From IMG/VR virus record IMGVR_UViG_3300031455_000001, positions 91,346 to 155,345 of that record: DNA of 64,000 nt, one strand, 5' to 3'. The DNA comes from a virus. How positions within the stretch are numbered: position 1 is the stretch's first letter; each line of letters starts with the position of its first letter. Both the position numbers and the translations under genes were made by a program. Under the pieces are notes generated by a model, which did no database searches, was not told where the DNA came from, and saw only the letters and a program-made list of their open reading frames with translations. Shown piece by piece: positions 9,504 to 59,540 of this stretch.

Positions 9504-10398
9504 TGCTAGTAATTCTCTAAATAAGTGATCAAAAACATGTTCATGTACGGTCTTTGTAAAGAGTCATTATAAAATCATGTTGGTCGATATATTTGGTTCT
9601 TAATCCAAAATAGAAAAGGAAATTCATTTGATATCTAAGTATACTATAACTATAATTATGGGGGTACTTTTCAACCTTTTTTGTTCGGCTTTTTTTTGAT
9701 ATCGCATATAGCACTCAAACAACCACACTCTATCCACCTTTTCACTCTAATTTCACACGTTTTACCCTAAGAAAACACCTGTTTTTACATTTGAATAAAA
9801 TCACAACAAAATCATAAAAAATCACAACAGAACCATAAATAAAACCATAATAAAACCATAGAAAAATAATCATCTTTCAAAATTCTCAAACCTCTACTTT
9901 CTCATCAACCTCTTACAAACTCTTCACTCATCTTTCATACAACTATGCTAAAGACCACTCAACATTCGTCTAAATCCCGTTACCAAACGTACTATTTTAA
10001 ACATCTATATTTATCACCTCTAAAACAAACACCCTCTAAATCATCAAGAAATCCCGTTAACAAACCTAATTAACCCCTCCAATCAAGAACACCTATGGGG
10101 CATACCTTAACACCTTTGCATATAATCATACACAAACCCCGTTTGTTAACGCATATTTTTTAGAGCAACCAAAAAACCCTTACCGTACACACGATTTTTA
10201 CCATATTTATACCATAATTTTCCAATATTACTCTTACTCTTGATTTTCAATTTTTCACCACTTTTCATCACTTGTCAATAACTCGATAATCATCCGATCA
10301 TTATTCATCATCCATTAATCATTCACACATTCATTATACAATATAAATATACATTCAGCATTCATCCAATCACAATCCAATTTTCATCTAGACCTAAC

Positions 10399-10454
10399 AA
10401 AAATATGCCAATATATTATCAGCTTTTTACTGAAAAATATATTGGCATATTTTT
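10399..10454. terminator. Long hairpin / bidirectional terminator ending the minus-strand operon
   Basis: AAAATATGCCAATATATT ... AATATATTGGCATATTTT inverted repeat. Confidence 0.65.
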
Positions 10455-10513
10455 ACATAATCATCTATTCTTTCTATTCTTTCTTTTTATATATTTCTTT
10501 CTTTTTTAAACTT

Positions 10514-10936
10514 TTACAATCTAGTTTTAGTCAAACTTAAATTCTTGCCATAACGCAAAAGATCAAAAGAAAATACTAACTCTGTGGGATGGCTCTCTCC
10601 ATAGACCATAGGTAATTTGTACTTACTTAACATGCATGATTTAATCTCAAGAGAAACATCATAATCAAAACCACTATCCACATTTCTAGCAATGGACTTT
10701 CCCTTAATACTAAACTCTTTATCCATTTTACCATTCGAAACCAAATCAATAATATCAAAGTCAATATACGCATCCCGAACTAACAGTTTACCATATACTC
10801 CAGAAAATGTCAACTCAATTGATCCAGCGCTTCTAATATTGATGAAAGTATCGCCATTAGGATGTAAAATTTCTAAATCAAATGTATCTCGACTTGCAAA
10901 TTTATTGCTATCTAAGTTGTCCGTATCATTAAACAT
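10514..10936 (-). CDS. Short paralogue of the major tail-tube protein (start MFNDTD)
   Basis: Block-by-block similarity to ORF 46466-47224 seen by eye; start overlaps the upstream stop. Confidence 0.55.
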   Translation of the reverse strand: MFNDTDNLDSNKFASRDTFDLEILHPNGDTFINIRSAGSIELTFSGVYGKLLVRDAYIDFDIIDLVSNGKMDKEFSIKGKSIARNVDSGFDYDVSLEIKSCMLSKYKLPMVYGESHPTELVFSFDLLRYGKNLSLTKTRL

Positions 10937-11273
10937 TATTTTCACCATGATTATTATCATCAATGTATAAGCCATATTTATCTGTTGAATGATCAACTTC
11001 GCAATCTAATTGTTTTAAAGCCAATATAGAATCTACTTCCTTATATGTAGTTACTAACTTCTTCTCTACAATAGTCAATTCTAAGCCCATTTTTCTCAAC
11101 ATTTCTTTGACATACCCTATATTTTCAAATCCACGAGCATATGGATTATTCTCAAATACAAAGGCATTAAATTCACTATCGTTAAAGGACATTTTCATAT
11201 GATCATATGAAGATAGGTATTTATCTCCCAACTTTAAATAATAAATAATCTCTACCTTTTGCTTTTTACTCAT
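10929..11273 (-). CDS. Hypothetical protein
   Basis: Coupled ORF in operon. Confidence 0.6.
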   Translation of the reverse strand: MSKKQKVEIIYYLKLGDKYLSSYDHMKMSFNDSEFNAFVFENNPYARGFENIGYVKEMLRKMGLELTIVEKKLVTTYKEVDSILALKQLDCEVDHSTDKYGLYIDDNNHGENNV

Positions 11274-11551
11274 TATTTTCCACCTTTTTCCCTCTTGGAT
11301 AAGTAATTCATTAACACAACAAACTTGGAAACATAATAAACTCCAGCATAGTTAATCGCCATGCTAACCTTTTGGTTGTCAGCCAACCCATCCCATTTAT
11401 CAACAACCTTATTGATCCCAGAATTGGTTGATCGTCCTTCCACATGTAAAAAGAATGTTCTAACTACATGATCGCTGTCTCCAGTAGATTTTTTTACATG
11501 CTCAATTGCATCGACATCAAACTTATCGATAATCTGATTGGTATAATCCAC
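11273..11551 (-). CDS. Hypothetical protein
   Basis: ORF with RBS. Confidence 0.6.
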   Translation of the reverse strand: MDYTNQIIDKFDVDAIEHVKKSTGDSDHVVRTFFLHVEGRSTNSGINKVVDKWDGLADNQKVSMAINYAGVYYVSKFVVLMNYLSKREKGGK

Positions 11552-11590
11552 AATTATTCCTTCTTTCTATATTTAAAAAGCCTATTCACA

Positions 11591-11884
11591 CTATCCAACT
11601 AATTCAATAAGCTCATAATAATGTTCATTTTGTATTACATCATCAGCATCAACAGCATCAACAATATCCTCAGAAAACTCAAAGTGATATTTTTGACCAT
11701 TATCTTCTACTTCATACGAAACAACCGAAAATTTAAACCATCTACCATGATCTTCATTCCAATTAGAAACTTCCAGACAACCATTTAACAGGTTTTTAAT
11801 ATCATAATACTTACTGTCACCGACAGATCCTTCACCTAAGCGCTTTCTCAGATTATCAACAACCGAATTGTTCATACATATCAC
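11591..11884 (-). CDS. Hypothetical protein
   Basis: ORF in operon. Confidence 0.6.
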   Translation of the reverse strand: MICMNNSVVDNLRKRLGEGSVGDSKYYDIKNLLNGCLEVSNWNEDHGRWFKFSVVSYEVEDNGQKYHFEFSEDIVDAVDADDVIQNEHYYELIELVG

Positions 11885-12353
11885 CTATTCCGTCTTCTTC
11901 TGAAACAACCTCTACTTCATGACCGCAGTGCCTTATTCCATCAAAGAATCCCTCAATATTTTCAGCAATCCTATCTAATTGTTGTTCACCCATTAAGACC
12001 AAACATTTGTTCTCGTCTAGTAAAGCAACGCACTCACCATTGCTAAAACTAACAATATGGAACTTATAAGTTGTTTTATCATTATTTTTTATACTTGTTT
12101 GAGCAGATTTATCTAAGTTGATATTAACTGCCTGTTCTTGCTCATATTCACTAAGCAATTGAATCTCACCATCAACAAAAAACTCAGTATAGCCATTATC
12201 AAAACGAACAAAGTAATAACATTCTTCAATGCTCTCTACAAATCCTACTAAACCATTAAACACAGCAATGTCATAGTGTTTCACATCTAAAACAATAACT
12301 CTTTCGCCTTTTCGAATAGCAGATTCTCTATTAGTCATTGCTTGCCCCTCCAT
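11856..12353 (-). CDS. Hypothetical protein with SH3/KOW-like N-terminus
   Basis: IRKGERVIV...GLVGFV..I....YFVRFD pattern. Confidence 0.55.
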   Translation of the reverse strand: MEGQAMTNRESAIRKGERVIVLDVKHYDIAVFNGLVGFVESIEECYYFVRFDNGYTEFFVDGEIQLLSEYEQEQAVNINLDKSAQTSIKNNDKTTYKFHIVSFSNGECVALLDENKCLVLMGEQQLDRIAENIEGFFDGIRHCGHEVEVVSEEDGIGDMYEQFGC

Positions 12354-12534
12354 ATAACTGTTTAAGGATTTCTATAATTTCCTCTACACAATCCTTATGC
12401 CCCTTGAAGGCTCTTACATTTCCTAAGCCATCCTCCATCTTAAAACCTACAAGTTCTTCATTGTCTCCTAAGATACGAAGGCATCTGTCGCACATCTTCC
12501 TTAAATCCAAATTACTCATCATTATCCACCTCAA
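12331..12534 (-). CDS. Small zinc-finger protein (CxxC...HxxC), paralogue 1
   Basis: CDRC ... FKGHKDC. Confidence 0.6.
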   Translation of the reverse strand: MRWIMMSNLDLRKMCDRCLRILGDNEELVGFKMEDGLGNVRAFKGHKDCVEEIIEILKQLYGGASND

Positions 12535-12733
12535 AAGTATCCATCAACTTTTTATTAAGCTCAAGCATACAATTCCTATGTCCTTTGAATGTGATCTCTT
12601 CACCATAATCGTCAATTATTTGAAACGCAAAAACCTCTTCGCCCTCTTTGATTAAACCATAGCAACCACTACAAAGTTTTGACAAGTCGATTCCCATTTT
12701 TACCTCTCCCCTAACAAAATAAGGGAAAGGCAA
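12512..12733 (-). CDS. Small zinc-finger protein (CxxC...HxxC), paralogue 2
   Basis: CSGC ... FKGHRNC; likely start MGIDLSK. Confidence 0.6.
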   Translation of the reverse strand: MPFPYFVRGEVKMGIDLSKLCSGCYGLIKEGEEVFAFQIIDDYGEEITFKGHRNCMLELNKKLMDTFEVDNDE

Positions 12734-12750
12734 AGCCTTAACCCTATAGT

Positions 12751-13548
12751 TTATTTATTTTCTTTTTTAGTTGATTTTTTAGCAGGAGCTTTTTTAGGTG
12801 TATCTTTCTTCTTAGCAGGAGTCTTAACTTCCTGTTTATCTTCTACAATTGTATTAGTGTCTGGTTTTTTAACAATTTCTTCTGCAACATTGCTCAACTT
12901 TTTACCAATATTTTGACCAGCTTTTTTAACATCTACATCATTATATTTAAGCATATCTCCAGTAATACGATAAGAAGAAATCATACCAGACGCAAGTGTC
13001 ATAGCTTTACTTGCACCGTCTTCTGTAGCTTTGAAGTCACCAGCAAATGCTCCGCTAATGCCATAACTTTCAGCAGTCTTTACAGCATCAATATTAGCAC
13101 CTAAGAAGATAAATTGCCAATCATACTTCTCTGTCTGGTGTTTAACTTTCTCTTGAATAACTTTTTTATTGTATTCTTTAGATGAATTTTCTTCTCCATC
13201 AGTCATGATAACTACAACAACATTCTCTGGTTTGTCAGCTTCTGAAAATGTGTTTAAGCGTGATCCAAGACCATCCACCGCAACGCCAATAGCGTCAAGT
13301 AAAGCAGTTCCTCCATATGGAGTGTAGGTTTGACCATTAAGATCCTCAACTGTTTCAATATCTGCACTTTCATAAGTAGTTACAACACCTGAATCAAACA
13401 AAACCAAGGTTAGTCGTACTTCTCCTTCTTGCTTCTTTTGATCCTCAACAAAAGCATTAAATCCTCCAATTGCATCCGATTTAATACCATTCATAGATCC
13501 GCTCTTATCTAACACAAAGACAATCTCGGTCAATCCTTTTTTCATCAT
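12751..13548 (-). CDS. von Willebrand factor A (vWA) domain protein with a basic low-complexity tail
   Basis: MIDAS motif DKSGSM, T(ALLDA), TDGEEN; Lys/Pro-rich C-terminus. Confidence 0.85.
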   Translation of the reverse strand: MMKKGLTEIVFVLDKSGSMNGIKSDAIGGFNAFVEDQKKQEGEVRLTLVLFDSGVVTTYESADIETVEDLNGQTYTPYGGTALLDAIGVAVDGLGSRLNTFSEADKPENVVVVIMTDGEENSSKEYNKKVIQEKVKHQTEKYDWQFIFLGANIDAVKTAESYGISGAFAGDFKATEDGASKAMTLASGMISSYRITGDMLKYNDVDVKKAGQNIGKKLSNVAEEIVKKPDTNTIVEDKQEVKTPAKKKDTPKKAPAKKSTKKENK

Positions 13549-13751
13549 TTAATCTCCTTTTTTCTCTCAACAACTTCTACAGATGTATATCCCACTTTGT
13601 GCAGGTTGCTCATTATGTACTCTAATTGCTCGAAAGTCCATCCGCTAATATCCATTGCGTCTTGGATCTTTCTGCATGTAGCAATACTTTTATCATTCAT
13701 ATCAAACAAAAACTCACCTGTTTTAATCCTTAAAACCTTATCATTCATCAT
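13545..13751 (-). CDS. Hypothetical protein
   Basis: Coupled ORF. Confidence 0.55.
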   Translation of the reverse strand: MMNDKVLRIKTGEFLFDMNDKSIATCRKIQDAMDISGWTFEQLEYIMSNLHKVGYTSVEVVERKKEIK

Positions 13752-14049
13752 CTAATCTCCTTTTTATCTCAGCATAGATTTCTTCATCATAAGCCTCTAT
13801 CATCCCAGCCCCTAAAGAATTGTCTATACTAAACTTCAAAGACGAAAAATTACTGATAAGATCAATACTGTTATGTGTATCGCACATCTTTAATGCAGAG
13901 TCAAACACATCTGATTTAAGCAATTCATACGTTTCTTGACTCATCACAAATACGGTGTCTTTTATATTCCCTAAATCCTTCACCCTAATAGCATCCATTT
14001 CGGTAGCTTGCAAACTCCAACATAACCATCTTTTGCTTTGAAGTTCCAA
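13741..14049 (-). CDS. Hypothetical protein
   Basis: ORF in operon; start uncertain. Confidence 0.5.
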   Translation of the reverse strand: MELQSKRWLCWSLQATEMDAIRVKDLGNIKDTVFVMSQETYELLKSDVFDSALKMCDTHNSIDLISNFSSLKFSIDNSLGAGMIEAYDEEIYAEIKRRLDDE

Positions 14050-14149
14050 AATCCTAATATCTCATAACTCTTTACCACGGCATATGTGTAAAGGCTAACA
14101 TAGCAAAATGCCAGATAGCCAAACACTAAAGATAAGGCTTCTATTAACA

Positions 14150-14404
14150 TTACGATTTATCTTCTTCTAAAGATAATGCTTTGATTTTTGTTAGAGTGAG
14201 TTTTCGATAATCTGCATTGAATCTTTCTTGATATAAAGTCAATCCTTTTACTGGAGTGGCACTAGCTAAATCAAACTCAATTCTTCCAGTATCTTTATCA
14301 AATGAAACGTCAGAGATCTCAATGCCATTTGGTAAATTGAATAAGTTTTCAAGCTCTGCCAAATTTACTTGTAGTTTGCTTTTTGCGATCATAATTTCAC
14401 TCAT
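14150..14404 (-). CDS. Hypothetical protein
   Basis: ORF track. Confidence 0.55.
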   Translation of the reverse strand: MSEIMIAKSKLQVNLAELENLFNLPNGIEISDVSFDKDTGRIEFDLASATPVKGLTLYQERFNADYRKLTLTKIKALSLEEDKS

Positions 14405-14457
14405 CCTTTTATTTTTCTAATTTATATTAGAGGGCGGATAAGCCACCCTCATTTATT

Positions 14458-15258
14458 TTACCAAGGCTCACAATCGCAATCATCATTTTGTAGCAGGCAG
14501 TCTTCACAGTTATCTGTTAAGTCTTCACCCTTTTCTTCATCTGACTCTGAAGAATATTTACCTAAGTCTTCTACTTCATCTGATTTACTATTATATGTTG
14601 CACCTGTTACGTAATTAAGCAATTCTTGAGGAGATACTTCTTGAAGCTCGTTATCTTTAATCATTGAATGATACTGGTCATAGCTCAACTCGACACGACT
14701 ATAAGACTCTTCTTTAAGAAGTTGATGACCCATATATAAAACTTTAATCAAATCAACTACTTCATTAGATTTGTCATTGCATGCATAGTAGTATTCATAA
14801 GATCCATCTTTATAAGATTTGACAATATTGACATTGAAGTTAGATTTTTCGTCTTCTTTTTTATCTTGTAATTGAAGAAGCTCAAAAATGTTGCCTCCAT
14901 AAAAATCAACATAAACTCCTAGACTTGAGATTTCGTCAATGGCAATAAGTTCTCCAGCCTCAACTCTGTTGAACTTTTCGTCTAGCAAATGAACTTGTAC
15001 ATTTTTACCATCTTCTTGCAATACAAGTTCGTATTTATCATCACTAATTAATGATTGAACTACATCGCGATCATAAACCATCTCGCCATTGATTTCTCCT
15101 AGTTCCACCAATACCGTTACAGTGTCTCGTTTTACAACATGATGTTTGCCATCAAAATCAACTAGAGTCACTGTATGTTTGATAAAGCTTACTTCAGCAA
15201 TTTCACCCACTAAGTTTAATTCATGCGAATATCCTAATGCATCCTGTTTATTTAACAT
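14458..15258 (-). CDS. YopX-like domain protein
   Basis: NGEMVYDRDVV and GNIFE resemble the YopX motifs NGKEIYEGDI and GNIYE; own promoter and GGAGG RBS. Confidence 0.5.
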   Translation of the reverse strand: MLNKQDALGYSHELNLVGEIAEVSFIKHTVTLVDFDGKHHVVKRDTVTVLVELGEINGEMVYDRDVVQSLISDDKYELVLQEDGKNVQVHLLDEKFNRVEAGELIAIDEISSLGVYVDFYGGNIFELLQLQDKKEDEKSNFNVNIVKSYKDGSYEYYYACNDKSNEVVDLIKVLYMGHQLLKEESYSRVELSYDQYHSMIKDNELQEVSPQELLNYVTGATYNSKSDEVEDLGKYSSESDEEKGEDLTDNCEDCLLQNDDCDCEPW

Positions 15259-15367
15259 TATGTAATTCCTCCATTATAAGTTATGGCGTTTATCATGTTT
15301 TGTTCCTCTACGCCTAATTATAGTATATCATTATTTTTTGTATCTGTCAATTGCCTCTATTACATTA

Positions 15368-17632
15368 TTAAGATGTCTTTACATTAATCTTTTTATTATC
15401 TTCTACTGAATTGAATTTATTAAGCAGTTCATATAAGAAGCTTCTTCTCTCCATATTGGCAAATTTCTTAATTGAATCATTAATTGTTTCTGCTTGACCC
15501 AATACGATCAGGTATTTCGTTGCACGTGAAACACCTGTGTAAATAAGATTGGCATTAAGTTGATACGATGCTGATCTGTCTGTAATTGCAATGACAACTT
15601 TATACTGACTGCCCTGACATTTATGAATAGTCATTGCCCAAGAGTGCATGAGAGTTGTTAGCACTATCTCCCAATCAAGTCTTACGACTATCCCTTCATA
15701 ATCGATAACCAAACATTTTTCTTCTGTATCAATATCAACGATCTTGCCATTATCTCCATTAAATAAATCAGCTTCTCCGCCATTTATCGTCTTAACACCA
15801 TATGTGTTAGAGGTGTTCATAACTAAATCTCCAACTCGATATGTAATTTCGTTTTCTTTCTTGCCAAACTTTTTCTCTTTTTTTAATGAATTTTCTGGAT
15901 TAACAATTGATTGAATGGTTTTATTCATCTCAACCGTTCCTAGTTTGCCTTTGTTCGTAGGAGTTAACAAAACTATATCATCTGAAGAGAATTTTTCTAA
16001 AAGCTTTTTATAGTAGTGGATATATCCATCACGTATATAATTTTGATTCACTAGATGGAATAGGCAGTCATTTCCAATTCGTTTGCGACCTGTTTCATTA
16101 TTATTTAGAAATACAACACCGTTACGAATGTCTGTTGCCACATTCAAGATGCCACCTTTTTCTTGTCTGAATACTTTTTGTAATTGAGAAATTTTAATTA
16201 CTCCACTACGGATGGAGTCGTACAGGAAGCTTCCAACACCAACGCTCGGTAATTGAAAATCATCTCCAACAAATAGAATCTTAGAATTATTGTTCTGAAT
16301 CGCCTTAAACAACTTATCAAGAATAAAAACATCACACATAGATGATTCATCTACAATGATAACGTCTTCATGAATATATTTAACTGCCCCTTCATCGTCA
16401 TCATAAACACCAATTGCTCTATGGATTGTTTGTGCAGGGTGATTGGCATAATTTGCAAGAATTTTAGATGCCTTACCTGTTGGCGAAAGTAAAATAGTGG
16501 TTAAGCTTTTCTTTTTGATTAATTCAAGCAAAATTCTTATTAACCAAGATTTCCCCATTCCACCAGATCCTATTAATAATGAGATATTGTTCTCATTCCA
16601 ATCATGGAAAAACTGTCTTTGTTTTTCTTCTAAGCTAACATTATTCTTTGCACAATAATCATCTAGAAAAACATTTATACACTCCGTTTCAAATGTTTTC
16701 TTTGACTGCAATTTAAATTGAATCATCTTCATCGCTATTCCTTGCTCCGCAAGATAAATATCGTCACGAGTAAACCTACCGTCAAGATTCATAATGCCTT
16801 TTGGGTTGCTGTTTAAAACTTCTTTTATATTATCTTTGCTTATAGCCAGCAAAGCAATACACCTGTTTAAAAGCTGTTTGTCACCCACCCAAGAATGACC
16901 ATTTTTATTCTCTTCTCTAATGGCATAATGAATGCAACTAGTTATTCTGTGAGGCGACAACATATCATATCCGACCGCCTTAGCAATGGCGTCCGCTTTG
17001 AGAAACCCTATACCTTTAATTTCCGTTAATAAATAAGGATTCTGTTCGATCTTCTGGATTACTATTTGAGGACTTTTATATTCTTTAATAAGCTTCTTGA
17101 TCATGTTATATTTTATCCCATATTTAGAAAGAAATATTAAAATCTCACTCATCTCTAGATTAGACAATACTTTATCTCGAAGTTTTTCAAACGTTTTTTC
17201 TCCAAGATTTTTAACTAAGCTATAATCGAACTCTCCCGATTCAATCATTCCTAAGATATCTTGACCTTCTTTATATACTTCAAATATATTTTCTATCTGC
17301 TTTACAGTTAATATTGATTTCAAGAAGTCTTTTTGTTGTTCTACTGTAACTGGCTTATCTCTTCTGATTGAATCAACAATGTAACTTCCTTCATATTGAG
17401 AATTTTTATCAACAGATAGCTTTACAATCCACTCTTCGTTAAGATCCAACCTAGGCATACTGCCTTTAATTGATATATTTCCGTATTTATTTAATTTGAT
17501 TTCAAATTCTGGATTAACCAAATCTTCTTCATTTACACTTGCTCCATATATACCATATGCATCTTCGCTGTTGTAGAAAAGCTCTCTTGTCGCACTGACT
17601 CTGATTTCCAATTGCATCAACTCCTCTGTCAC
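15368..17632 (-). CDS. recD2: RecD2-like SF1B helicase
   Basis: HhH motif GIGFLKAD, Walker A GSGGMGKS, VDESSM, VGDDFQLPSV, FRQ, TIHKCQGSQ, YTGVSRA. Confidence 0.9.
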   Translation of the reverse strand: MTEELMQLEIRVSATRELFYNSEDAYGIYGASVNEEDLVNPEFEIKLNKYGNISIKGSMPRLDLNEEWIVKLSVDKNSQYEGSYIVDSIRRDKPVTVEQQKDFLKSILTVKQIENIFEVYKEGQDILGMIESGEFDYSLVKNLGEKTFEKLRDKVLSNLEMSEILIFLSKYGIKYNMIKKLIKEYKSPQIVIQKIEQNPYLLTEIKGIGFLKADAIAKAVGYDMLSPHRITSCIHYAIREENKNGHSWVGDKQLLNRCIALLAISKDNIKEVLNSNPKGIMNLDGRFTRDDIYLAEQGIAMKMIQFKLQSKKTFETECINVFLDDYCAKNNVSLEEKQRQFFHDWNENNISLLIGSGGMGKSWLIRILLELIKKKSLTTILLSPTGKASKILANYANHPAQTIHRAIGVYDDDEGAVKYIHEDVIIVDESSMCDVFILDKLFKAIQNNNSKILFVGDDFQLPSVGVGSFLYDSIRSGVIKISQLQKVFRQEKGGILNVATDIRNGVVFLNNNETGRKRIGNDCLFHLVNQNYIRDGYIHYYKKLLEKFSSDDIVLLTPTNKGKLGTVEMNKTIQSIVNPENSLKKEKKFGKKENEITYRVGDLVMNTSNTYGVKTINGGEADLFNGDNGKIVDIDTEEKCLVIDYEGIVVRLDWEIVLTTLMHSWAMTIHKCQGSQYKVVIAITDRSASYQLNANLIYTGVSRATKYLIVLGQAETINDSIKKFANMERRSFLYELLNKFNSVEDNKKINVKTS

Positions 17633-17714
17633 CTTTAATATAGTATTATTATATCATAATTTATTGTATCCGTCAAAATATCACACTATATAAAATTATT
17701 TTAAAAAATAGTCA

Positions 17715-31252: not shown

Positions 31253-31324
31253 GTGGATGTAGGCTAGTGGTAAGTCGCTCGGTTTGGGGTCGAGAAATCG
31301 CAGGTTCAAATCCTGCCATCCGCA
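31253..31324 (+). tRNA. tRNA-Pro(UGG)
   Basis: Acceptor GTGGATG/CATCCGC; anticodon arm CTCGG-TTTGGGG-TCGAG; GTTCAAATC T-loop. Confidence 0.9.
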
Positions 31325-31329
31325 TTGGT

Positions 31330-31700
31330 TCTCACACCATAATAAGTGATTGTTTGGCTCAGATGTATTGGTGTAGGGGTTTGCTCCACGTTAAAAAAAT
31401 AAAGCCCATAGTATTCGAGATGTGATGTCTCAACCTTTAGAGAGTTTGGCTGTTGTCTCTGGCTAATAATACAACAGAAAATATAATGCATAGCCAAAGA
31501 CCAAGTGGGCGTGTCAAGTTATTGTAACTTGCTAAAGGTCAAAAATATATCTTACCACCCCTACCTATTGACATGGGTGAGTCGAAAAGTGGGGTTAAAA
31601 GAATGATAGGTGAGCTAAAGATTAAGCTACATTAAAAAAGAATGTCACTTTTTGTAGCACAGGATTCGAACCTGTAACATTGCCTATCCTGCTGATATTG
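31330..31700 (+). ncRNA. Candidate structured ncRNA
   Basis: Stems GTAGGGG/CCCCTAC, TTTGGCT/AGCCAAA, ACCTTTAG/CTAAAGGT crossing GCCCA/TGGGC. Confidence 0.4.
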
Positions 31701-31891
31701 ACTTCGTGGTTATAGATATTGGCGATTGATTTTATAAAAAGACAGTTTTATCTAAAGTCAAGGTATCTTGGATAGAGCCTACGATAAATTTCTGGTTAGT
31801 GCTTGTTAATTCTAAAGCCCTTTTCCTCACACCGATATTGCAACGGTAAAAGCACTGTAGAAAAGTGAGGATTCAATTCGTAGGTTCTATC

Positions 31892-31963
31892 CAAGGTGTG
31901 GCGTAATGGTTAACGCGGTAGACTGTGAATCTACTAATGAGAGTTCGATTCTCTCCATCTTGA
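31892..31963 (+). tRNA. tRNA-His(GUG), lacking G-1/C73
   Basis: Acceptor CAAGGTG/CATCTTG; GTAGA-CTGTGAA-TCTAC; GTTCGATTC. Confidence 0.85.
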
Positions 31964-31969
31964 CTTAAT

Positions 31970-32042
31970 GGATCTTTAGCATAATGGCTAATGCCCTCAT
32001 CTCATAAATGAGCTTATGCTAGTTCGAATCTAGCAAGATCCA
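31970..32042 (+). tRNA. tRNA with CAU anticodon (probably Ile2, otherwise elongator Met)
   Basis: Paired G1:C72 acceptor GGATCTT/AAGATCC; CTCAT-CTCATAA-ATGAG. Confidence 0.85.
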
Positions 32043-32290
32043 CTTCTACCTACCTTGTCGAAAGATAACTAGATGGGCTTCGCTGTGGGAGCGCTGTGAG
32101 ATGTTGGCTAGGCAACTAACCCTAGATACTCATTTCAGACTTCGGGCGCTGGGCGCTGGACAGTTGGCAGGCAACAGAAAAACTTGTGCAAGACTCACTT
32201 CGGAGAAATAACGACACAGAAGATGGCGAGATAGGTACGCATAAGTCCAACGAGGAGACATTTCTTCGTTTGTTATCAATTGATACTTAT

Positions 32291-32362
32291 GGGAGAGTAG
32301 CTGAGATGGATTAGCGAAGGACTGAAAATCCTTAGAGAGTGGATCGTTACCATTTTCTCCCA
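32291..32362 (+). tRNA. tRNA-Phe(GAA)
   Basis: GGGAGAG/TTCTCCC; AAGGA-CTGAAAA-TCCTT; atypical T-loop ATCGTTA. Confidence 0.8.
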
Positions 32363-32379
32363 CTAGGCGACTCGCTACC

Positions 32380-32701
32380 TCAAGTGCGATAAAAGTGCTG
32401 GATAGGTTGATGTTTCGACTTTCAGCAGGGTCTTACTGGTGTGTTAGACCCTAATAAAAAGACACAGACCAACAAGAAAGTCATTGCACATTGTAGCGAA
32501 GTTAGATGGTTGATAACTACAATGAAATACAACCATCGACTTATACTTAATCACATCTCATCTGCAATGTGGGTTGTGATAAATTCCTTGTGTAGCCTTA
32601 CCATTTCTGATGTAGGATCGGTGGTAAAAGTGAAAGATAGATCCTACGCTGATCGCACTTGATACAAGGTTTGAGTGTGATCTAAATTAATTTTTCTATC
32701 C
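32380..32701 (+). ncRNA. Candidate multi-pseudoknot ncRNA
   Basis: Three H-type pseudoknots enclosed by an 11-bp helix 32380-32390/32652-32662. Confidence 0.55.
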
Positions 32702-32967
32702 TTCTGCAAGCCATGCGTGGTGTCATCGACAGAGATGTTAAAGCAGATTAAAATTTTGGAGATATGGAGTTCATGACAGGTTCAAATATCTTACTTATTA
32801 TTTTAAAATACCGTCAGTACCACCTGTATCTGGTCTATGATCGAAAACTGACAACCGCAAGCGTCCTCCATACTTAATATATGGTGATACACCAGACAAG
32901 AATCGATAAAAAGTCGAGGGTGTTTGCAAGCTAGGTTGGTTCTTGGTATGAGCCTAGCTATTATAAT

Positions 32968-33042
32968 GTGGGATTGGTCTAATGGCTATGATTCCTGTTT
33001 TCCAAACAGGCGATGAGGTTTCGACTACCTCATCCCACACCA
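32968..33042 (+). tRNA. tRNA-Gly(UCC) with encoded CCA
   Basis: GTGGGAT/ATCCCAC-ACCA; CCTGT-TTTCCAA-ACAGG. Confidence 0.9.
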
Positions 33043-36216: not shown

Positions 36217-38295
36217 ATGTCTTCTAAGTGGAAAAGTTTTGATGATTTAGAAAATATAAAGGGTACAAATTCAAATAAGAATATAAGTGAAATGCTTCCA
36301 GAGTTCGCTGAGATGCTTTCTTATTTTCAAGTTTACCCAGATAGATTTATTGATTACATACTCCCAGAGGATAGCACGTTTAAACTATATCCTTTTCAGC
36401 GAGTATTTCTAAGAATCATGGCTCGATACAAGAAGATTTATTAGTACATCACCGCGACACGGGGAACTTCTAAATCTTTCTTGAATATATTATCAATGTA
36501 TTTGAAATGTATATTCTTCCCTAATATAAAACTGTCGTTAGTTGCTCCACAAAAGGATCAGGCAAGTCAAATTGCTCAGCAAAATATTGAGCAAATTTGG
36601 AACTTTATGCCCCTGTTGCAGAAAGAAATCAAACCAAAAGGAATGACATTTGCAAAGGATTATACTCGTCTTAAGTTTTTAAATGGCAGTATCCTTGACA
36701 TTGTTGTTGCCTCACAAGGTTCGCGTGGACTTCGTAGGCACGGATTATCATTCGAAGAAATCTGCCAGATGGAAAAACATAGAGAAGTGATTGGCGAGGT
36801 TTTACTACCATTACTAGCTAATAATCGCAAAGGTGCAGATGGTAAAGTTTCAAAGCACGAAATACATAAACAATTAATGTACGTAAAATAAATGCGTCAA
36901 TATATAGTGATATATATTAGAAATCTTGTGAATTGCTAAAAACTCCTTATTGTTTTATATACTACAACGTAACTAGAAATAGTAGGCGTGAATGTTTAAA
37001 AAATATAAAAATCGGACAATCAGCATCCAATCCCCTAAGTTTTATTAGATAAGGGGCAGGTTCAACGACTATTCCAGACATGGAAGTAGGTGTTAAGTAA
37101 CACCGAAGCACAAGACTCTTAAATCATATTTAAGATGAAGATATAGTCTAATCTTATGGGAAACCATAAGCAGTTCTTAGAGAACGGTGCAGTGCTAACG
37201 ACACTGTGCGAATATAAATGAACAACAGCTTCCTCACGACAGTCTTATGCGTGGGAACAATTATATAGTGTCATGCTAGACATGGCAAGAGGTAAAAGCG
37301 CATTTGTTGTCGGAAACGACTTCACATTGCCAGTAATGTTTGAACAATTAGATCCAGATTATATAGATGAGGTTAAGAATGATCCAAGTATGAGTCCACT
37401 GCAATTTGCAAGAGAATACGTGTCCGTCTGGACAGGTAGTAGTGAGAATAGCTTGGTTCAACTTAAAGATCTAGAGAAGTGTCGAGTCCTTACAAAAGCA
37501 GAGTTCAGTGCAGTTAAAAAAGGTGATCATAAATATGTCATATCCGTAGATGTTGCTCGTTCTGAAAGAAAAAAATCAGCAACTACTGCAATTGCGATAT
37601 TTAAAATTTCACCAAGAGGTAATGGAACTTATTACAAACAGCTTGTAAATCTGCACACATATAAAGGAAATATGCATTTTGAAGATCAATCTATATATAT
37701 AAAAGATTTAGTCGAGAAATATGGTGCATCAATGGTATGTGTTGATGGTAACGGTCTTGGTAGAGGTCTTATTGATTATCTTGTGAAAGAAGATAAATAC
37801 AGATCTTATTCAGTTGTTAACGATGATAGTTATGACAAGTATAAGCTTCCAAATTCATTGCCATTGATTTTTAATGTAATGTCAAATACTAAGCAGACAA
37901 ATTCATCTGATATCCATAATAATTTCATGGCTGTTATTTCAAATCATAATTTAAAACTACTCATCTCTGATTCAATTATGAAAGAGAAGATTAAAGGTAG
38001 GACTCAAGAAGATAAAATGGAGAAATTGGAGAAGCTTGCAGAAGAATTGGCTCCCCACATTGAAACTGGATATTTTGTTGATGAAGTTATGAATTTGATA
38101 TATGTAGCAGAAGGAAATAGAACTAAAGTTAAACAGGTTTCTAGAAATATGGACAAGGATAGATATTCAGCAGTGTCCTATGGATTGTGGTACATCTATT
38201 TAGAAGAAGAAAAGAATCAACAAAGAAAGAAACAAACTTTTAATGCTAGAGGAATGATGGCTGTTAAGAAAGCCAAGAATAAAGTTTTCAGTTAA
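36217..38295 (+). CDS. terL: Terminase large subunit; segments 36217-36438, 36445-36884 and 37221-38295 join to ~578 aa
   Basis: LYPFQ, Walker A ATRGTSKS, RGLR, Walker B FEE, coupling motif VTTAS restored by splicing, nuclease motifs SVDVA and KDRYSA. Confidence 0.9.
36885..37220 (+). mobile_element. Group I intron in terL (no ORF)
   Basis: P1 ACGT/GCGT with U-G at the 5' splice site; AATTGCT...AATCAGCAT, TTCAACGACTA and AAGATATAGTC core motifs; terminal G; removal gives YVTTASSRQ in frame. Confidence 0.92.
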
Positions 38296-38311: not shown

Positions 38312-39793
38312 ATGACGCAAAAAGAGAAAAAAGAAAGACAGAGTATTATGAACTTTAATAAGCATGATTTTTCTAGAATTATAATCAATGATGTATTGAG
38401 TTATAAAGGTGGAAGAGCCTTTCTGAAAAAATACAAACAGAGCGAAGTTCGTGAAATAGTTGAAGGTTATAGATCAGAAGCGAACCAAGATAAACTGGTT
38501 GAAATATCTAGATTGCTGTACGCAAAAAGTCCACAATACAAGAGGTTAGTTAATTACTTTTCTGGAATGGCGTTATTTTCTCACATTCTGTCACCAATCA
38601 AAGACATCCAAAAAGTTAGATCTGATTTAGTGCTGAAACAGTATTCTGACATTGGAGAGCTAACAAGAATGATGAACCTCAGACACGAGATGACAAAAGT
38701 TCTTAAGGTTGCTTTCCGAGAGGATGTTTTTTACGGGTATATTTTTAAAGAAGAAAAATCTTTTTATATACAACCCATCAGCCCATCTATTTGTAAGATA
38801 ACTTCAATCGATGAAGTTTACAATTTTAGTATTGATATGACTTACTTCACTATAAGAGAGAAAGAATTAAAAGCTTACGCAAGTGAAATTAGTGATAAGT
38901 ATTTTCAATGGAAAACCAAGAAGAAACTAAATTCTCAAGTGAGTGATTGGGTTGAGCTTGATTCCAAAAATACTATCTGTATAAAGATTAATGAAGAAAC
39001 ATCAAATGTTTTCCCTCCATTTGCAGGATCATTTGATTCTATTTATGATGTTGAAGGATTTAAACAGCTAAGGAAAGATAAAGAAGAATTAGCTAACTAC
39101 ATGGTTATCACTCAGCACTTGCCAATAAGAGAAGATTCTGAAGATAACAATGATTTCTTAATTGACGAAGACATGATGACTTACTTCCATTCTCAAGCTG
39201 TTGATGCAGTTCCAGAGAATGTGGGTGTTATTACATCTCCTATGAAGGTTGAAGCTCTTAAATTTGAAAGAGACAAAGCAGACAGTGACGGAGTTCTAAG
39301 AGCAGAGCGAGATTTATGGAGTGGACTAGGCGTTTCACAATTACTATTTAATGCAGATAAAACAACTTCTGAAGGATTAAAAGCATCTATTAAAACAGAT
39401 GAGCAGATTGTCTTTAATGTTCTTAATCAAATTCAAAGATGGTTAAATCGTTATTTGAAATATCAGTTTAACGATCTATTTTTTAATGTGAGTATACTTC
39501 CTGTCACATATTTTAACAGACAAGAGATGTTTGATATGTACATAATGGCTGGTCAGTATGGAGTCCCTGTAAAGAGCGCCATTAGTGCTGTTGTCGGTTT
39601 AGACCCTATAGAAGTCATGAATATGGCTTATCTGGAGAATGACCTTCTGAAAATGCATGATGAATTTATACCTCTTCAAAGCTCCCATACTATGAGTGGA
39701 GACGATCCTAATTCTGAAAGTGGTAGACCTAAAAAAGATCCTTCAGAAGAAAGCGATGAAACTGCAAGAGGTCGAGACAAAGCCAATGCATAA
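38312..39793 (+). CDS. Portal protein
   Basis: Position after terL, size, and C-terminal PLQSSHT..GRP motif typical of SPbeta-like portals. Confidence 0.8.
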   Translation: MTQKEKKERQSIMNFNKHDFSRIIINDVLSYKGGRAFLKKYKQSEVREIVEGYRSEANQDKLVEISRLLYAKSPQYKRLVNYFSGMALFSHILSPIKDIQKVRSDLVLKQYSDIGELTRMMNLRHEMTKVLKVAFREDVFYGYIFKEEKSFYIQPISPSICKITSIDEVYNFSIDMTYFTIREKELKAYASEISDKYFQWKTKKKLNSQVSDWVELDSKNTICIKINEETSNVFPPFAGSFDSIYDVEGFKQLRKDKEELANYMVITQHLPIREDSEDNNDFLIDEDMMTYFHSQAVDAVPENVGVITSPMKVEALKFERDKADSDGVLRAERDLWSGLGVSQLLFNADKTTSEGLKASIKTDEQIVFNVLNQIQRWLNRYLKYQFNDLFFNVSILPVTYFNRQEMFDMYIMAGQYGVPVKSAISAVVGLDPIEVMNMAYLENDLLKMHDEFIPLQSSHTMSGDDPNSESGRPKKDPSEESDETARGRDKANA

Positions 39794-46465: not shown

Positions 46466-47224
46466 ATGTCAAATTTACGTTATGGCTTAAAAGAAGTTGC
46501 TAATGTTATCTTCTTCGATATTAGCACAAACAAACCTGCAATCTTTTTTGATACATTAAAAGTATCAACAATCGAGAATGAGTCAGAATCAGCAGAGGCT
46601 CGTGGAGGTCAAGGAAATGGTAAGCTAATGGCTTGGGATTTCGCACGTGGAGCAACATTGACAATGTCAGACGCTCTTCTTTCAGATAACTCTCTAGCAA
46701 TGCTTGCTGGTACACAGAAGAAAACTGCTGACGTTCGCGTTGTAGGTCGTGAAGCTTTAACAGCTACTGGTACAACTACTGTTAAGGTTACACTTAAAGA
46801 GACGCCAATCGAAGGAACAGTTACTGTCTATAAGATGCAAAGTGGAATCATGACTGATGAAGTAACTACTTTCACAGTAGGTACAGCAGGTCCATCATCT
46901 AAAGAAATTACTTTGACAACAGGCGTAACAGCAGGTCAAAGAGTCGTAGTATTCTATGAGTATGTAGTAGCTACAGGCGCTTCACAAGTTACATTCAATG
47001 CTAACAACTTCCCTGCTACATATCGTGTGGTTGGAGATACTATTATCCGTGGAGAAGATGGAGTGGATCGTAAGATGCAATTTGTTATTCCAAAAGCAAA
47101 ACTTCAATCTTCATTCTCATTAACAATGGATGCAGAAAACGTTTCTACATTCGACTTCAACTTAGAGGTTCTAGTAGAAGCTGGTACAGGTAAGCTTTAT
47201 GACGTTATTCGTCTAGATAGCTAA
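46466..47224 (+). CDS. Major tail tube protein
   Basis: YGLKEV...ARGGQGN...DALLS; Thr-rich Ig-like insertion; strong RBS; terminator downstream. Confidence 0.8.
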   Translation: MSNLRYGLKEVANVIFFDISTNKPAIFFDTLKVSTIENESESAEARGGQGNGKLMAWDFARGATLTMSDALLSDNSLAMLAGTQKKTADVRVVGREALTATGTTTVKVTLKETPIEGTVTVYKMQSGIMTDEVTTFTVGTAGPSSKEITLTTGVTAGQRVVVFYEYVVATGASQVTFNANNFPATYRVVGDTIIRGEDGVDRKMQFVIPKAKLQSSFSLTMDAENVSTFDFNLEVLVEAGTGKLYDVIRLDS

Positions 47225-48475: not shown

Positions 48476-49480
48476 ATGTCTAAGAGAATAGAAAAAGTAG
48501 CAGATCATTTTTGGGACAACATAGTTAATGAGGATAATAGAGATTTTATAGAAAGCTTTCTAGAGCAACCTCATCTATCTCCAGATTCAGTTGGACAATA
48601 TAGATCAGCGTTGAAGATTTTTGCAAAGTGGATTTATGACAATACATATTCTGAAAATGAAGGCAGAGAAAAGCTAATAACTGAGCTGATTCCCAGAGAT
48701 GCTGGAAAATATCAAGCTTGGCTCAAAAAGAAGGGCTTAAGTTCTGGTTCGATAAGATTCAAGAGGTCAGCAGTTTCTAGTTTGTGTATTTACATAGAAG
48801 GAATGTATGACAAAGAATATCCCAACTTTAGAAACATATTTACTAAAGCAGTAAAACAAATAAAGAAGAGTCCTAAAAAAGAAAAGAATCCTTTAAATAG
48901 TAAAGAGTTGTCTCATCTTGCAGATGTTCTTGAAGAAAAAGGCGAATTGCAAAAACTGGCTTACTTATGGTTTACCTATATCACTGGTTGCAGACGAGAA
49001 GAGTCCAGACAGATAAGAGTAGAGATAGCTGGCTATGATCGTTATGTCAATAAGAAAGGCGATAAAAAAGAGTATTATCAAACTCACACAGTCAGAGCTA
49101 AAGGCGCTGGAGAAGAAGGTAAAATAAGAAGGTTTAATTTTGATCAGAGGGCTATGGATGCCATCACAGCTTGGGTTGAATATAGAAAGACACAAGTTGA
49201 AGACGATGATTGCGAGTTTTTGTTTGTCAGTAAGAGAGGTGGCAAATATCAACAAGTGTCAAAAAACACATTTAATTCATGGTGTCAGAAGTTTAGTGAG
49301 ATCTTAGAAGGAAGACCAGTTCATCCCCATTTAATAAGATCAACTAGAGCCACTATAGCAAAGGTGGAAGATGGAGTTAGTATTGAATCTATCCAAAAGA
49401 TGCTGGGTCACAATTCATCTGAAACTACGAAGATATACATTGTAAATGAAGATGATGACGATGATGACGATTTGTATTAA
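48476..49480 (+). CDS. Tyrosine recombinase within the tail operon
   Basis: Complete catalytic set: GCRREE, KG, HLIR, LGH, IY. Confidence 0.85.
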   Translation: MSKRIEKVADHFWDNIVNEDNRDFIESFLEQPHLSPDSVGQYRSALKIFAKWIYDNTYSENEGREKLITELIPRDAGKYQAWLKKKGLSSGSIRFKRSAVSSLCIYIEGMYDKEYPNFRNIFTKAVKQIKKSPKKEKNPLNSKELSHLADVLEEKGELQKLAYLWFTYITGCRREESRQIRVEIAGYDRYVNKKGDKKEYYQTHTVRAKGAGEEGKIRRFNFDQRAMDAITAWVEYRKTQVEDDDCEFLFVSKRGGKYQQVSKNTFNSWCQKFSEILEGRPVHPHLIRSTRATIAKVEDGVSIESIQKMLGHNSSETTKIYIVNEDDDDDDDLY

Positions 49481-49590: not shown

Positions 49591-52500
49591 TTGAGCAAAG
49601 GCAGTAATGATTTAAATCTTTTGTTAAAAGCGAAAGTTGTTAAAATTAAAGTTGAATTAGACGGCAAAGGAAGCAATCTTCCTACCCAAGTGAGGAATAT
49701 TTCTAGAAGTCTAATAAAACATCCTGTTAAATTAAAAGTTCAATTAGACGGCAAAATTGGAGATCTTAATAAGCAGGTGAAATTGATCACTAACACTCTT
49801 AATGCAAGCAAAGGTTTTAAACCTATAAAACTTGCAGTTCAGATAGATGTTGCTGGATCAGCAATGAATATCAAGAGTCAGCTTCAAGGTGTTTATAAAA
49901 CTGTAGAAGATTTTAATAGAAAATACGGTGTACAGCTTGACAAGATGCAAAGACAGACAGCGAAAGCTAGTACATTGGCTGTTGGTGCAACAAGTGGAAA
50001 AGTTCCTATGGATGCAGGTGTCGGGAACTTCAACAACATCAAACAATATGTTAATCAATTAAAAGAAGCAGAAAGAATTATGAAATCAAAATTACCAAAA
50101 GGTCAAAGTGGATTATTCAGTTCTTTTGAAATGAAAGATGCACAAGGTAATTTAAAAGGATTCATTGCAACATTAGAAAGAGCTAATGGTGTAGTTGATA
50201 AGGTTCGTTATAACTTCAACAAGGATAAGAACGCATTCCAAGTAATAGATAGAACGACAGCAAATAACACCGCAAAACTGATAGATCAACAACTGAGAAA
50301 ACTTCAAACATTAGAGCGTCAAATTGACACAACTGGAAGACAAGCAGGACAATTCAGAACAGAGTATAACAGGCTTATCACGGCAGGTGCAACTGGAAAC
50401 CTGAACGCCTCTGAGGTAGCTAATTTTAATAATAAGTTAAAAGAATCTATTTCAGTAACTAAGCAAAGAGAACAAGTTGTTAGATCTCTGACCAAAATGC
50501 TAAGAGAAACTCATCACGTAGAAGGTCTTCTAGGTCAAGACAACATCAAAGCAGTGAGAAATTTAGCTAGTAGAGCTACTTCGACCAATGAATTAGCAAG
50601 AGCGCAAGCAGAGCTAAACAGAATGGTTAAGATGCAAGATGCTAATAAAGATATGGGCAGAAGAGAAAAAGCTTTAAGAAAATTAAAAGAGACAATGATG
50701 GAGGTTTCCCGTGTAACTGGAATGGAAGCGTCAACCATTGAGGCTCGTTATGCTCAACTATCTAAAAGTGTAGGTGGCAACTTAGGAAAGATTACGCAGG
50801 AACTTAAGAAATATGAACGCATAGTTCAGAGAGTTTCAGATCAATCCAGAATAAGCAGTCTGCAAGGCGCAGAAGGCAGTATGGTTAATAGCAAAAATCA
50901 ATTCAGCAATAAGAAGATGAATAGTTTAATTGCTAGCGGCGATGTTAATGCGATGAGGCAATACCTCTCTGACACTCAGAAATTAGATATTGCGATGATG
51001 AGAGTAGGTAAAAATGCTAATGGAGTGACTAAGTTAACTGCTCAACTAGTAGGCACAGGGAAAACTGTCAAACAGGTTTCTTTTGAAGTAGATCGACTTA
51101 GTGGAAAACTTAGAAGACTTCCAGACTCGTTAGTTTTTAACCGCAATGCAAATCTTGGTGTTTTTGAACAATTAAAGATTGCGATGGCTCGTGTCCCTGT
51201 ATGGATGGCAGCTATGACAGCATTTTATGGGACTATTAACCTAATTAGAAACATGTCACGTGAGATATTAGAACTAGATAAATCTCTTACAAACTTGCGA
51301 AGAGTAGCAAGTGGAAATATAAACATCGACACAATGTTCTACGGTGCAATTGATCTATCTAAAGAACTTGGTAACAATATTCACGATGTTATGAAATCAG
51401 TAGAAGAATTGGCTCGTACTTTTGGTACTTTCAATGAAAGACAATTGTTAGACATTACTAAAACAGCTACATTGATGTCAAACGTATCTGATTTAAAAGC
51501 AGATGAAGCAACTCAAACATTAGTGGGAACAATGAATGCTTTCAATATTGAAGCATCTGAGTCAATTAGAATTGTAGACGCATTAAACGAGGTTAACATA
51601 TCAGCCTCCTTGTACAGTAATGTATATGTAAAATGGTGTATATCGGTGAAAATCCTATTTTGTAAATATAAATTATTAATCATATTTTTATATTGGGGAC
51701 AATACCGACAGAAACTCTTGAGATTCAAGAGGACTGCTAGAGACTGCCATCACCTGCCCTATTATTAAGTTAAGGGCAAAGGTACAGTCCGACCTTCCGA
51801 AATAACAACAAATGAAACGGAAGAGTTAAATAGAGATATTTAACCGCTATACATAAGTATAGTCAGTAACCTGATTTAAAGGTGAAAGTAACAGAGTGAG
51901 ATAATGACTACGCAATTTCTACTCAACAACTAGCAACAGGATTGAGGAAGTCAGCTTCAACAGCAAAAACTTTCGGTAGACATACATGCCGATTTGCATG
52001 GCGACATGCATTAGATAAATTTAGCCATATCGGTGAAAATCGCAGGGAAAAATAAGCGACAATACCGAGGAAAGATCGATTTAAAATGTGATAAGAACTA
52101 GGGATTGGTTCTTGCGCAGGGTTTTAGTAGACCAATATAGATAAGTCAAAAGAAAGATACTTAACTAAATGCGGACATACATTAATAAGCATTTGGGAGA
52201 AAGATATCTATAAAAATACAGAAAAACTACTAAACTCAATTTTAAATCGGAATCCGTCACGACTATGTTAATTGCAACAGTAATGTTGCAGTTCTACGCT
52301 AGACATCTTTAAATCCAATTTTCAATTAAAGATGAAGATAGAGTCTGAGCTACACACAATAACCTAGAGGTGTAGAGGTAGGCAGAAATGACCTACCCCT
52401 AACAATTTATACTTATTTGTTAGAGTAACAAAACTGGTGTCATTAGAAGAAAATGTCGGACATATTACTGCAATCGGTGCAGTTACTATGGAATCAGGAA

Positions 52501-58500: not shown

Positions 58501-59540
58501 AAGGTAGCTTTACTCAAATCAAGAACGAACTTGCTATAATGCAAGGTGATTTGAATAACATGAATAAAGGAATTTTTGATGGCTTAACTCAGAGTTTTGC
58601 GAACTTCACAGATGAAGCTAAAAGACAGATTGCAGAAATGAACGCATTGTCAATTGACAATATGATTTATAATTCAGCAGATCCAACGAAGGCTGTCGAT
58701 AGTGCTTGGCAATCTGGTCAATATAAAATGACTGATGGTAAATCAACTGCAAAACCACCTACTGTAACAGTTCCGAAAAATGAAACAACACCAAAACCAA
58801 AAGCAACTCCTGCACCAAAACCAGCTCCAAAACCAGCTCCAAAACCTGCAACAGCCGCGACAGAGTATTATACCATTAAAAAGGGTGATACTTTTGGTCA
58901 CATCGAACAAAGATACAAGCTTCCAAGTGGATCTTTGCAAAAATTAAACCCAAGTCTCGATCCTAAGAAATTACAGATCGGACAGAGAATCGTACTACGC
59001 AAAGCTTCTTCAACAAGTTCTGGAGGAAGCTCTTCTAGTGGTTCTGCTAACAGAAAAACAACAAGCGCACTTAATTTTAGAAGTAGTCCTGCATATGGAA
59101 ATAACATAATCACAAGTATCCCTAAAGATGCTAAGGTGGAATATGTTGGCATGGAAAAGGGTTGGGCTAAAATTAAGTACAACAACAAAACAGGATATGT
59201 TGGAGCCGATTATCTGAAGAAATTCGATACGGGTGGCTATACTGGCAACTGGACTGGCAATGAAGGTAAAGTTGCAATGCTACATAAGAAAGAGCAGGTC
59301 TTCAATAGAGACGACACTAAGAATCTTCTTGATGCAAGTAAATTGCTAAGGAGCATGAAGGATGTACTTCCTATTCTTAATAGAGAAACTATCTCTAAGA
59401 AGATGGCAACAGCTAACACTATAACAACAAACGTAACTTATGGAGACATTAACGTTACTGTTCATGGCGGAGATAAAAAGAAAACAAAAGATCTAGCAAC
59501 AGAGATCGTAAAGAAAATTCAGCAAAAAGGAAAGGCTTAA
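49591..59540 (+). CDS. Tape measure protein; exons 49591-51593, 51899-51977 and 52437-59540 (~3061 aa), with M23, LysM and SH3b domains
   Basis: Splicing restores DALNEVDNDYAIST...AKTFGVSLEE; HNGVD/HLH, YTIKKGDT...LQIGQRI, LNFRSSP...GWAKI. Confidence 0.9.
51594..51898 (+). mobile_element. Group I intron 1 in the tape measure gene
   Basis: P1 GAGGT/GCCTC with U-G; TATCGGTGAA/AATACCGA, AGAGACTG/ACAGTC core; terminal G; reading frame restored. Confidence 0.9.
51978..52436 (+). mobile_element. Group I intron 2 in the tape measure gene, with an endonuclease remnant
   Basis: P1 TCGGT/GCCGA; TATCGGTGAA/AATACCGAG, CGACTA/AAGATAGAGTC core; terminal G; reading frame restored. Confidence 0.9.
52131..52271 (+). 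pseudogene. C-terminal remnant of a Vsr-like intron homing endonuclease
   Basis: DKSKERYLTKCGHTLISIWEKDI, with no start codon or N-terminal part. Confidence 0.6.

Follow-up and report, generated by a model that had tools for sequence, protein, structure and literature searches.

A short tail tube paralogue without loop 1 in the helicase operon of a Tsamsa-like phage, and its possible role as a decoy for tube-sensing immunity

The stretch of DNA analyzed here (the window) comprises 64,000 nucleotides, positions 91,346 to 155,345 of the IMG/VR virus record IMGVR_UViG_3300031455_000001, and is part of a 155-kb viral contig from a soil metagenome with an estimated completeness of 94%, whose relatives are the Tsamsa-like large Bacillus siphophages Tsamsa, FADO, 2S-4, and BcoS-136. 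The subject of the analysis is a small gene, P0001, at the end of a leftward operon, which an initial annotation made by eye had taken for a mini paralogue of the tail tube protein encoded by the phage itself, P0002, and which we call the mini-tube gene. The two genes lie in the window as follows.

10514..10936, minus strand: mini-tube gene P0001, 140 aa; a tail tube paralogue with domain D1 only and without loop 1
46466..47224, plus strand: tail tube protein P0002, 252 aa; domain D1 with an inserted domain D2, representing the parent family of the mini copy

P0002 matches phrog_2729 with an E-value (E) of 3e-77 and is ~70% identical to the annotated major tail or tail tube proteins of Tsamsa-like Bacillus siphophages, with 69% identity to the tube of FADO. 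It also matches the solved SPR tube protein in the PDB, at E 7e-5 as a single sequence and 8e-9 with a profile, and the SPR tube protein is the activator of DSR2. The tail module around 46466-47224 is complete and syntenic with that of Tsamsa, a Dit homologue included. The mini-tube gene lies 35.5 kb from it on the opposite strand, in agreement with the initial annotation, which had placed the gene far from the tail operon.

Pairwise BLASTP of P0001 against P0002 returned nothing, the by-eye alignment alone is not significant, and P0001 by itself has no Pfam or PHROG match. Word-indexed homologue searches retrieved only P0001 itself or four known members, and scanning viral and metagenome contigs with single proteins gave no match. 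An exhaustive phmmer search recovered 18 genuine small homologues of 129-192 aa that are 22-33% identical to P0001; P0004 and P0016, also matched by phmmer, are long repeat proteins and were dropped as false positives. When the resulting 19-member family alignment (A1, P0001 and the 18 homologues) was compared with the alignment of tube proteins (A2) by hhalign, the two matched at E 4e-5 over the C-terminal block. With the alignment split into halves, the C-terminal half matched with a probability of 94% (E 9e-8), while the N-terminal half (E 4e-3, probability 8%) was not significant alone but was collinear. A hidden Markov model (HMM) of the mini-tube family matched all 24 tube proteins tested, at 10.6-31.6 bits, and scored the phage's own tube P0002 at 25.8 bits (E 4e-10 per comparison) in three collinear blocks, profile 3-37 with tube 2-38, 44-67 with 65-88, and 66-120 with 183-237. 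The alignment blocks named in the initial annotation were thus reproduced, the C-terminal one with the hhalign significance given above and the two N-terminal ones with a weak N-terminal half. Run over the whole Tsamsa and BcoS-136 genomes, the family profile matched tube genes only (E 2e-6), and three of the 19 family members match phrog_2729 by themselves. Over the phage's own genome, the A1 profile reported only the mini-tube gene at E <= 1 and did not report the tube gene; the link to the phage's own tube rests on hhalign and hmmsearch, not on this genome scan.

The AlphaFold (AF2) model of P0001 built with the family alignment reached a predicted local distance difference test score (pLDDT) of 88 and was used in place of the single-sequence model, which was poor (pLDDT 43). 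Its best match in a VIA search was the SPR tube chain 9jgi_G, with a Z score of 13.9, a root-mean-square deviation of 2.6 Å and 128 of the 140 residues aligned, the aligned SPR chain range spanning the D2 insertion and identity in the structural alignment being ~14%. Other tube and Hcp folds scored Z 9-11.6, and the top Foldseek matches were 9jgh, 9jgi, and 8z18. TamB-like beta-rich clusters retrieved from the ESM Atlas with low recognition were judged to be chance matches. Profile alignment and superposition on the tail tube therefore both gave significant similarity to the tube fold, as the initial annotation had supposed, and the profile and predicted-structure comparisons together show P0001 to be a diverged, remote paralogue of the tube-forming beta-sandwich domain D1 of the phage's own SPR-type tube. 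By curated cut-offs it is a paralogue and not a member of the tube family, and the lack of the hairpin, of D2, and of a tail-module location led to the same placement. A displaced tail terminator or Dit was also considered for P0001 and was rejected, as the tail module is complete and the tube protein is the best structural and profile match.

Compared with D1 of the SPR/SPbeta-type tail tube (PF27173, phrog_2729; 9jgi, 9jgh, 8ygm, 8xkn), the mini copy has the same beta-sandwich-plus-helix fold, a similar acidic charge, and profile similarity in the three collinear blocks, but it has no D2, has lost ~21 hairpin residues, lies outside the tail module, is an accessory gene, and evolves much faster. 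The segments missing from it were located from the HMM match, which skips two parts of the tube. The longer one, residues 89-182, is the peripheral domain D2 (the 'Thr-rich insertion' of the initial annotation), and the shorter one, residues 39-64, is the tip of the beta2-beta3 hairpin, here called loop 1, with its ARGGQGN motif; both absences had been noted by eye and both are real. In the hhalign comparison, the gap at the beta2-beta3 hairpin is ~21 residues. P0002 residue 38 was aligned to SPR residue 34, and the gap in the mini copy therefore corresponds to SPR loop 1, Q34-K57. Between the flanking motifs there are 20-24 residues in every one of the 19 family members, as against 40 in the tube, and the loss of loop 1 is, judging from this alignment, a trait of the whole mini-tube family. 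The AF2 model places a tight turn at residues 46-47, where the tube has the long hairpin. No deletion was found in the mini copy at the position equivalent to the second loop (SPR 202-217), and 18 of the 19 family members are acidic, with isoelectric points of 4.1-5.8.

The mini-tube gene is the final gene of an operon headed by a RecD2-like helicase. The features of this operon, other than the mini-tube gene, are listed below.

10398..10455, minus strand: hairpin followed by a U-run, a likely intrinsic terminator closing the operon, 59 nt past the P0001 stop
10929..17632, minus strand: upstream genes of the leftward operon, encoding a RecD2-like helicase, a VWA-domain protein, and six small or unknown open-reading frames (ORFs)
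15322..15350, minus strand: second sigma-A-type promoter-like site, TTGACA-17-TATACT with TG, 11/12 consensus, upstream of the ORF at 14458-15258
17648..17676, minus strand: sigma-A-type promoter-like site, TTGACG-17-TATAAT with TG, 11/12 consensus, just upstream of the helicase gene

The helicase gene (15368-17632) is the first of the leftward series and, like the VWA-domain gene (12751-13548), was recognized by its Pfam match. The last member of the group of six ORFs overlaps the mini-tube start: the ATG of P0001 overlaps the stop of this 114-aa ORF by 8 nt and has a GGTGA Shine-Dalgarno-like motif upstream, and for these reasons P0001 is probably translationally coupled to it. The hairpin at 10398-10455 has a folding energy of -27.7 kcal/mol (z -7.3), and none of 200 shuffled sequences folded as well. 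As the region has no more promoter-like sites in total than expected from shuffling, the two sites serve as positional hints only. From the sigma-A-like promoters, the helicase operon, the coupling, and the terminator, we infer that the mini-tube gene belongs to a non-late ('early') operon. The same gene order recurs in phages 2S-4 and FADO. The neighboring ORFs gave no matches in the phage database or in PADLOC, and most have no assigned function.

Past the mini-tube gene, a 1.5-kb stretch between convergent operons (9017-10513) contains tiny ORFs only, together with a terminator past the plus-strand gene (9060-9091) and a promoter-like site at 9628-9656 (plus strand, 11/12 consensus). No Rfam match was found in this stretch, which could hold a small RNA or small genes. 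The plus-strand gene itself, 7343-9016, encodes a 557-aa protein with a DnaJ-type CXXCXGXG zinc finger close to its C-terminus, below the Pfam cut-off. This protein is kept in Tsamsa, BcoS-136, FADO, and 2S-4, although it seems shorter in FADO and 2S-4, where there is an upstream fragment with two TAA stops.

The distribution of the family was examined by tblastn with three family queries against 50,697 phage records. A family member was found only by the query P0010, in the cultured Bacillus phage 2S-4; in the same records P0001 gave two chance-level matches to unrelated genes (E 5-6) and P0006 gave none. The mini-tube gene of 2S-4 occupies the same position as that of the window phage, with the RecD2 helicase and a conserved 91-aa ORF upstream of it and the convergent zinc-finger gene following. 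FADO, whose flanking sequences are 97-99% identical to those of 2S-4, is without precisely this ~400-bp gene, the difference lying at 4477-4902 of 2S-4 (ON133270.1) and 64019-64040 of FADO (NC_073050.1). The junction of this insertion or deletion falls at repeats resembling ribosome-binding sites, AGGAA(C/T)GGAG, which suggests that the mini-tube gene was gained or lost by recombination between the ribosome-binding sites of translationally coupled genes. FADO, a working laboratory phage, does without the gene, which is thus dispensable. The mini copies of the window phage and 2S-4 are 30% identical, compared with 63% for the helicase and 69% for the tube. The mini-tube gene thus has the appearance of a dispensable, patchily distributed, fast-evolving single-gene accessory cassette in a putatively non-late operon, in the manner of anti-defense accessory genes. 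Co-occurrence of a mini-tube gene with a phrog_2729 tube is drawn from 2S-4; P0010 and the tube protein P0027 each lie on a Logan contig of 127,051 bp, a coincidence of lengths.

The segment lost from the mini-tube family has a defined role in the activation of a known immune sensor. DSR2 recognizes D1 alone of the monomeric SPR tube, D2 not being seen in the complex, and an SPR tube in which loop 1 was removed (Q34-K57 replaced by a GS linker) assembles with DSR2 into a stable complex at the wild-type ratio, yet gives no toxicity and little NADase activity (PMC10981675). The C-terminal solenoid of DSR2 forms a ring into which loop 35-55 is inserted, and binding depends on a groove and on loop 202-217 (PMC11087589). 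The beta-hairpin of the tube, the interface at which rings stack, is also read by Avs16, an unrelated sensor (PMC12803255). Within the clade of the window phage, FADO owes its ability to overcome DSR2 solely to NARP1, its genes for NAD+ repair, and a mutant from which they are deleted is blocked on DSR2 cells (bioRxiv 10.1101/2024.02.11.579819), showing that DSR2 senses this phage clade. A match to the NAPRTase family (Namat) is present in all four of FADO, 2S-4, Tsamsa, and BcoS-136. The 155-kb contig had no match to the NAPRTase family or to Prs-N (Adps), and NARP1 is thus apparently absent from the window phage, an absence that is not certain in a contig estimated to be 94% complete.

Given these findings, we tentatively favor a reading, with a probability of about 0.35, in which the mini-tube protein is an early-made, non-polymerizing mimic of the trigger that occupies tube sensors. 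It would be made before the late structural genes and, having no ring-linking hairpin, would not polymerize. It would instead occupy the tube-binding pocket of host sensors that recognize monomeric tube protein, such as DSR2-like SIR2 NADases, docking through the D1 surfaces that it keeps (the edge strands, the hydrophobic groove, and loop 2). As it would offer no loop to the C-terminal solenoid of the sensor, the NADase would not be switched on, and the real tube protein, made later, would meet a sensor already blocked. This reading is supported because the deleted segment is the very loop whose loss leaves DSR2 binding but abolishes activation, and because the clade is under pressure from DSR2, as seen from the block of FADO without NARP1 and from a tube 69% identical to that of FADO. 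Further support comes from the window phage having no NARP1 match while its mini-tube gene is accessory, fast-evolving, and in a presumably non-late operon, and from Avs16, which also reads the tube beta-hairpin. The decoy idea had been put forward in the initial annotation and is not demonstrated, yet the identity of the loop, the FADO and DSR2 data, and the accessory, fast-evolving nature of the cassette now lend it concrete support beyond that annotation.

Several considerations weigh against the trigger-mimic reading. Binding or inhibition of a sensor by the mini-tube family is a prediction drawn from sequence, model, and analogy, and the timing of its expression is likewise deduced from sequence. 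The DNA comes from a soil metagenome, and a DSR2-like sensor in the host is presumed. Among sequencing runs, the DNA was found only in the probable source metagenome, and no RNA run was listed as containing it. Conservation of the surface that contacts the sensor is not established, the phage's own tube being distant from the SPR tube (E 7e-5) and the mini copy only ~14% identical to it. Loop 35-55 makes strong hydrophobic contacts (PMC11087589), and a mimic without it may be bound less tightly than the late tube, an abundant protein that it must outcompete. The family is rare, with ~18 clusters among 1.8 billion representatives. Lastly, 2S-4 has a Namat-like gene of the NAPRTase family as well as a mini-tube gene, so that the two are not mutually exclusive alternatives. 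The low sequence conservation of the contact surfaces, the presumed character of the host defenses, and the presence of both genes in 2S-4 are the reasons that the figure was set at the value given above. A complex prediction of DSR2 (DSR2_BACIU, residues 290-1005) with the mini-tube alignment returned a score of 0.00 without controls and speaks neither for nor against binding.

Other functions were weighed against the same evidence. The protein might serve the phage's own tail, as an assembly regulator or minor structural protein that guards against premature polymerization as a chaperone, hides monomers, or forms a terminator- or initiator-like ring. The fold is common to the proteins that start and stop tubes, with tail terminators, Dit, and baseplate tube proteins all scoring Z 9-11 against the model, the lateral edge strands of D1 are kept so that joining a ring would be possible, and a capping subunit would have to be without the stacking hairpin. 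Such a role nevertheless appears unlikely, as the tail module is already complete and syntenic with that of Tsamsa, Dit included, the gene belongs to a helicase operon ~35 kb distant on the opposite strand, and it is absent from nearly all relatives, among them the viable FADO with flanks 97-99% identical to those of 2S-4. The 30% identity between the mini copies, compared with 69% for the tubes, also argues against co-evolving assembly contacts. A D1 domain without the stacking hairpin is, in addition, the form expected of a chain terminator, and an accessory, fast-evolving gene could suit a weapon against other tailed elements, that is, a dominant-negative subunit blocking the tubes of co-infecting phages, resident prophages, or tailocins. 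We consider this very improbable: the tube family closest to the mini copy is the phage's own, and there is no sign of the timing or specificity that would be needed to avoid self-poisoning, nor did literature searches yield a precedent. Of the initial annotation's proposal, the variant in which competitors' tails are poisoned is the less likely, for it would expose the phage's own tube in equal measure.

It is also conceivable, if improbable, that the paralogue was exapted as an Hcp-like ring or beta-sandwich adaptor for replication and recombination genes, or that it is neutral, persisting as a selfish cassette. In its favor, the gene keeps its syntenic place downstream of the RecD2-like helicase in the window phage as in 2S-4, the neighboring ORFs mostly have no known function, and similarity of fold alone shows no function. 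Decay is made less likely by a fold that is kept in 19 members sharing 22-33% identity with P0001, whose covariation sufficed for a confident model, and a general role as an adaptor leaves unexplained why one functional loop was cleanly removed throughout the family. There is, moreover, no sign of nucleic-acid binding in a family whose members are, with one exception, acidic.

Should the trigger-mimic reading be right, the closest functional analogue of the mini-tube would be the engineered loop-1-less SPR tube, not DSAD1. Both are D1 domains from which the same loop is removed, and the engineered protein binds DSR2 stably without activating it; it differs in being a laboratory construct of another phage's tube, with D2 still present and ~14% identity to the mini copy. 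DSAD1, from SPbeta/phi3T, is like the mini copy a small, mostly beta phage protein, and under the decoy reading both would silence DSR2 by occupying its C-terminal domain (CTD). The initial annotation had drawn a link to DSAD1, for which we found no support: no DSAD1 chain was among the Foldseek and VIA matches of the P0001 model (the DSAD1 sequence was not part of the comparison), and the depositors of DSAD1 report no structural similarity to known structures and describe it as preventing tube binding allosterically from the open CTD. Hcp and contractile-tail tube proteins have the fold in common with the mini copy (Z 9-10.5) and are of similar size (130-170 aa), but the SPR-type tube is closer to it than they are, and they assemble into stacking rings and are encoded in secretion or tail gene clusters. 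No sheath or type VI secretion system genes were found in the context of the mini-tube gene, a siphophage replication operon, and the gene is not of the Hcp or contractile type. NARP1 (Adps and Namat) would be a response, within this phage clade, to the selective pressure that a mini-tube decoy would also meet, but it acts by enzymatic repair of NAD+ after the sensor has fired and not by blocking sensing, and it has no match in the window phage.

Conserved structural proteins of phages set off bacterial sensors, among them DSR2 and several Avs families, and mutational escape from such sensing is thought to be difficult for phages because these proteins are constrained. A loop-deleted copy of the trigger, if it acts as proposed, would be an escape route that leaves the structural gene untouched. 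As an antagonist that arose by duplication of the trigger itself, it would embody a counter-defense principle other than that of DSAD1-type inhibitors, signal sponges, or NAD+ repair, with the mini-tube family as its first natural example. In the literature searched, neither a natural decoy derived from a tube nor tail-tube-fold proteins acting outside the tail module were described. The broader proposition, that phages disarm protein-sensing immunity with a pre-made, stripped copy of the trigger that keeps the docking surfaces and has lost the activating loop, is at present doubtful. Even without a decoy role, the mini-tube proteins constitute an apparently undescribed family whose role would inform on the reuse of structural folds.

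Other observations were made in the window. Within the tail module, a tyrosine recombinase gene (48476-49480, plus strand; Phage_integrase, E 3e-18) lies between the post-tube and tape measure genes, and Tsamsa has an ORF of similar size, gp227, at this position; FADO has been reported to form lysogens (bioRxiv 10.1101/2024.02.11.579819). The tape measure region consists of two large plus-strand ORFs, 49591-51768 (725 aa, with a PhageMin_Tail match) and 52437-59540 (2367 aa), separated by a gap of ~670 bp, where the Tsamsa counterpart is a single 9.4-kb gene. The interruption may be a true split or be due to an intervening element; Rfam detected no intron between the two ORFs. A group I catalytic intron was found at 36875-37170 on the plus strand (Rfam RF00028, 78.9 bits, E 2e-18, full model), between the ORFs 36481-36891 and 37273-38295 and upstream of a 493-aa ORF at 38312-39793. 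The intron probably interrupts a gene for packaging or the head, and the ORFs flanking it have no Pfam match. Five tRNA genes (Pro, His, Met, Phe, and Gly) are clustered at 31253-33042 on the plus strand.
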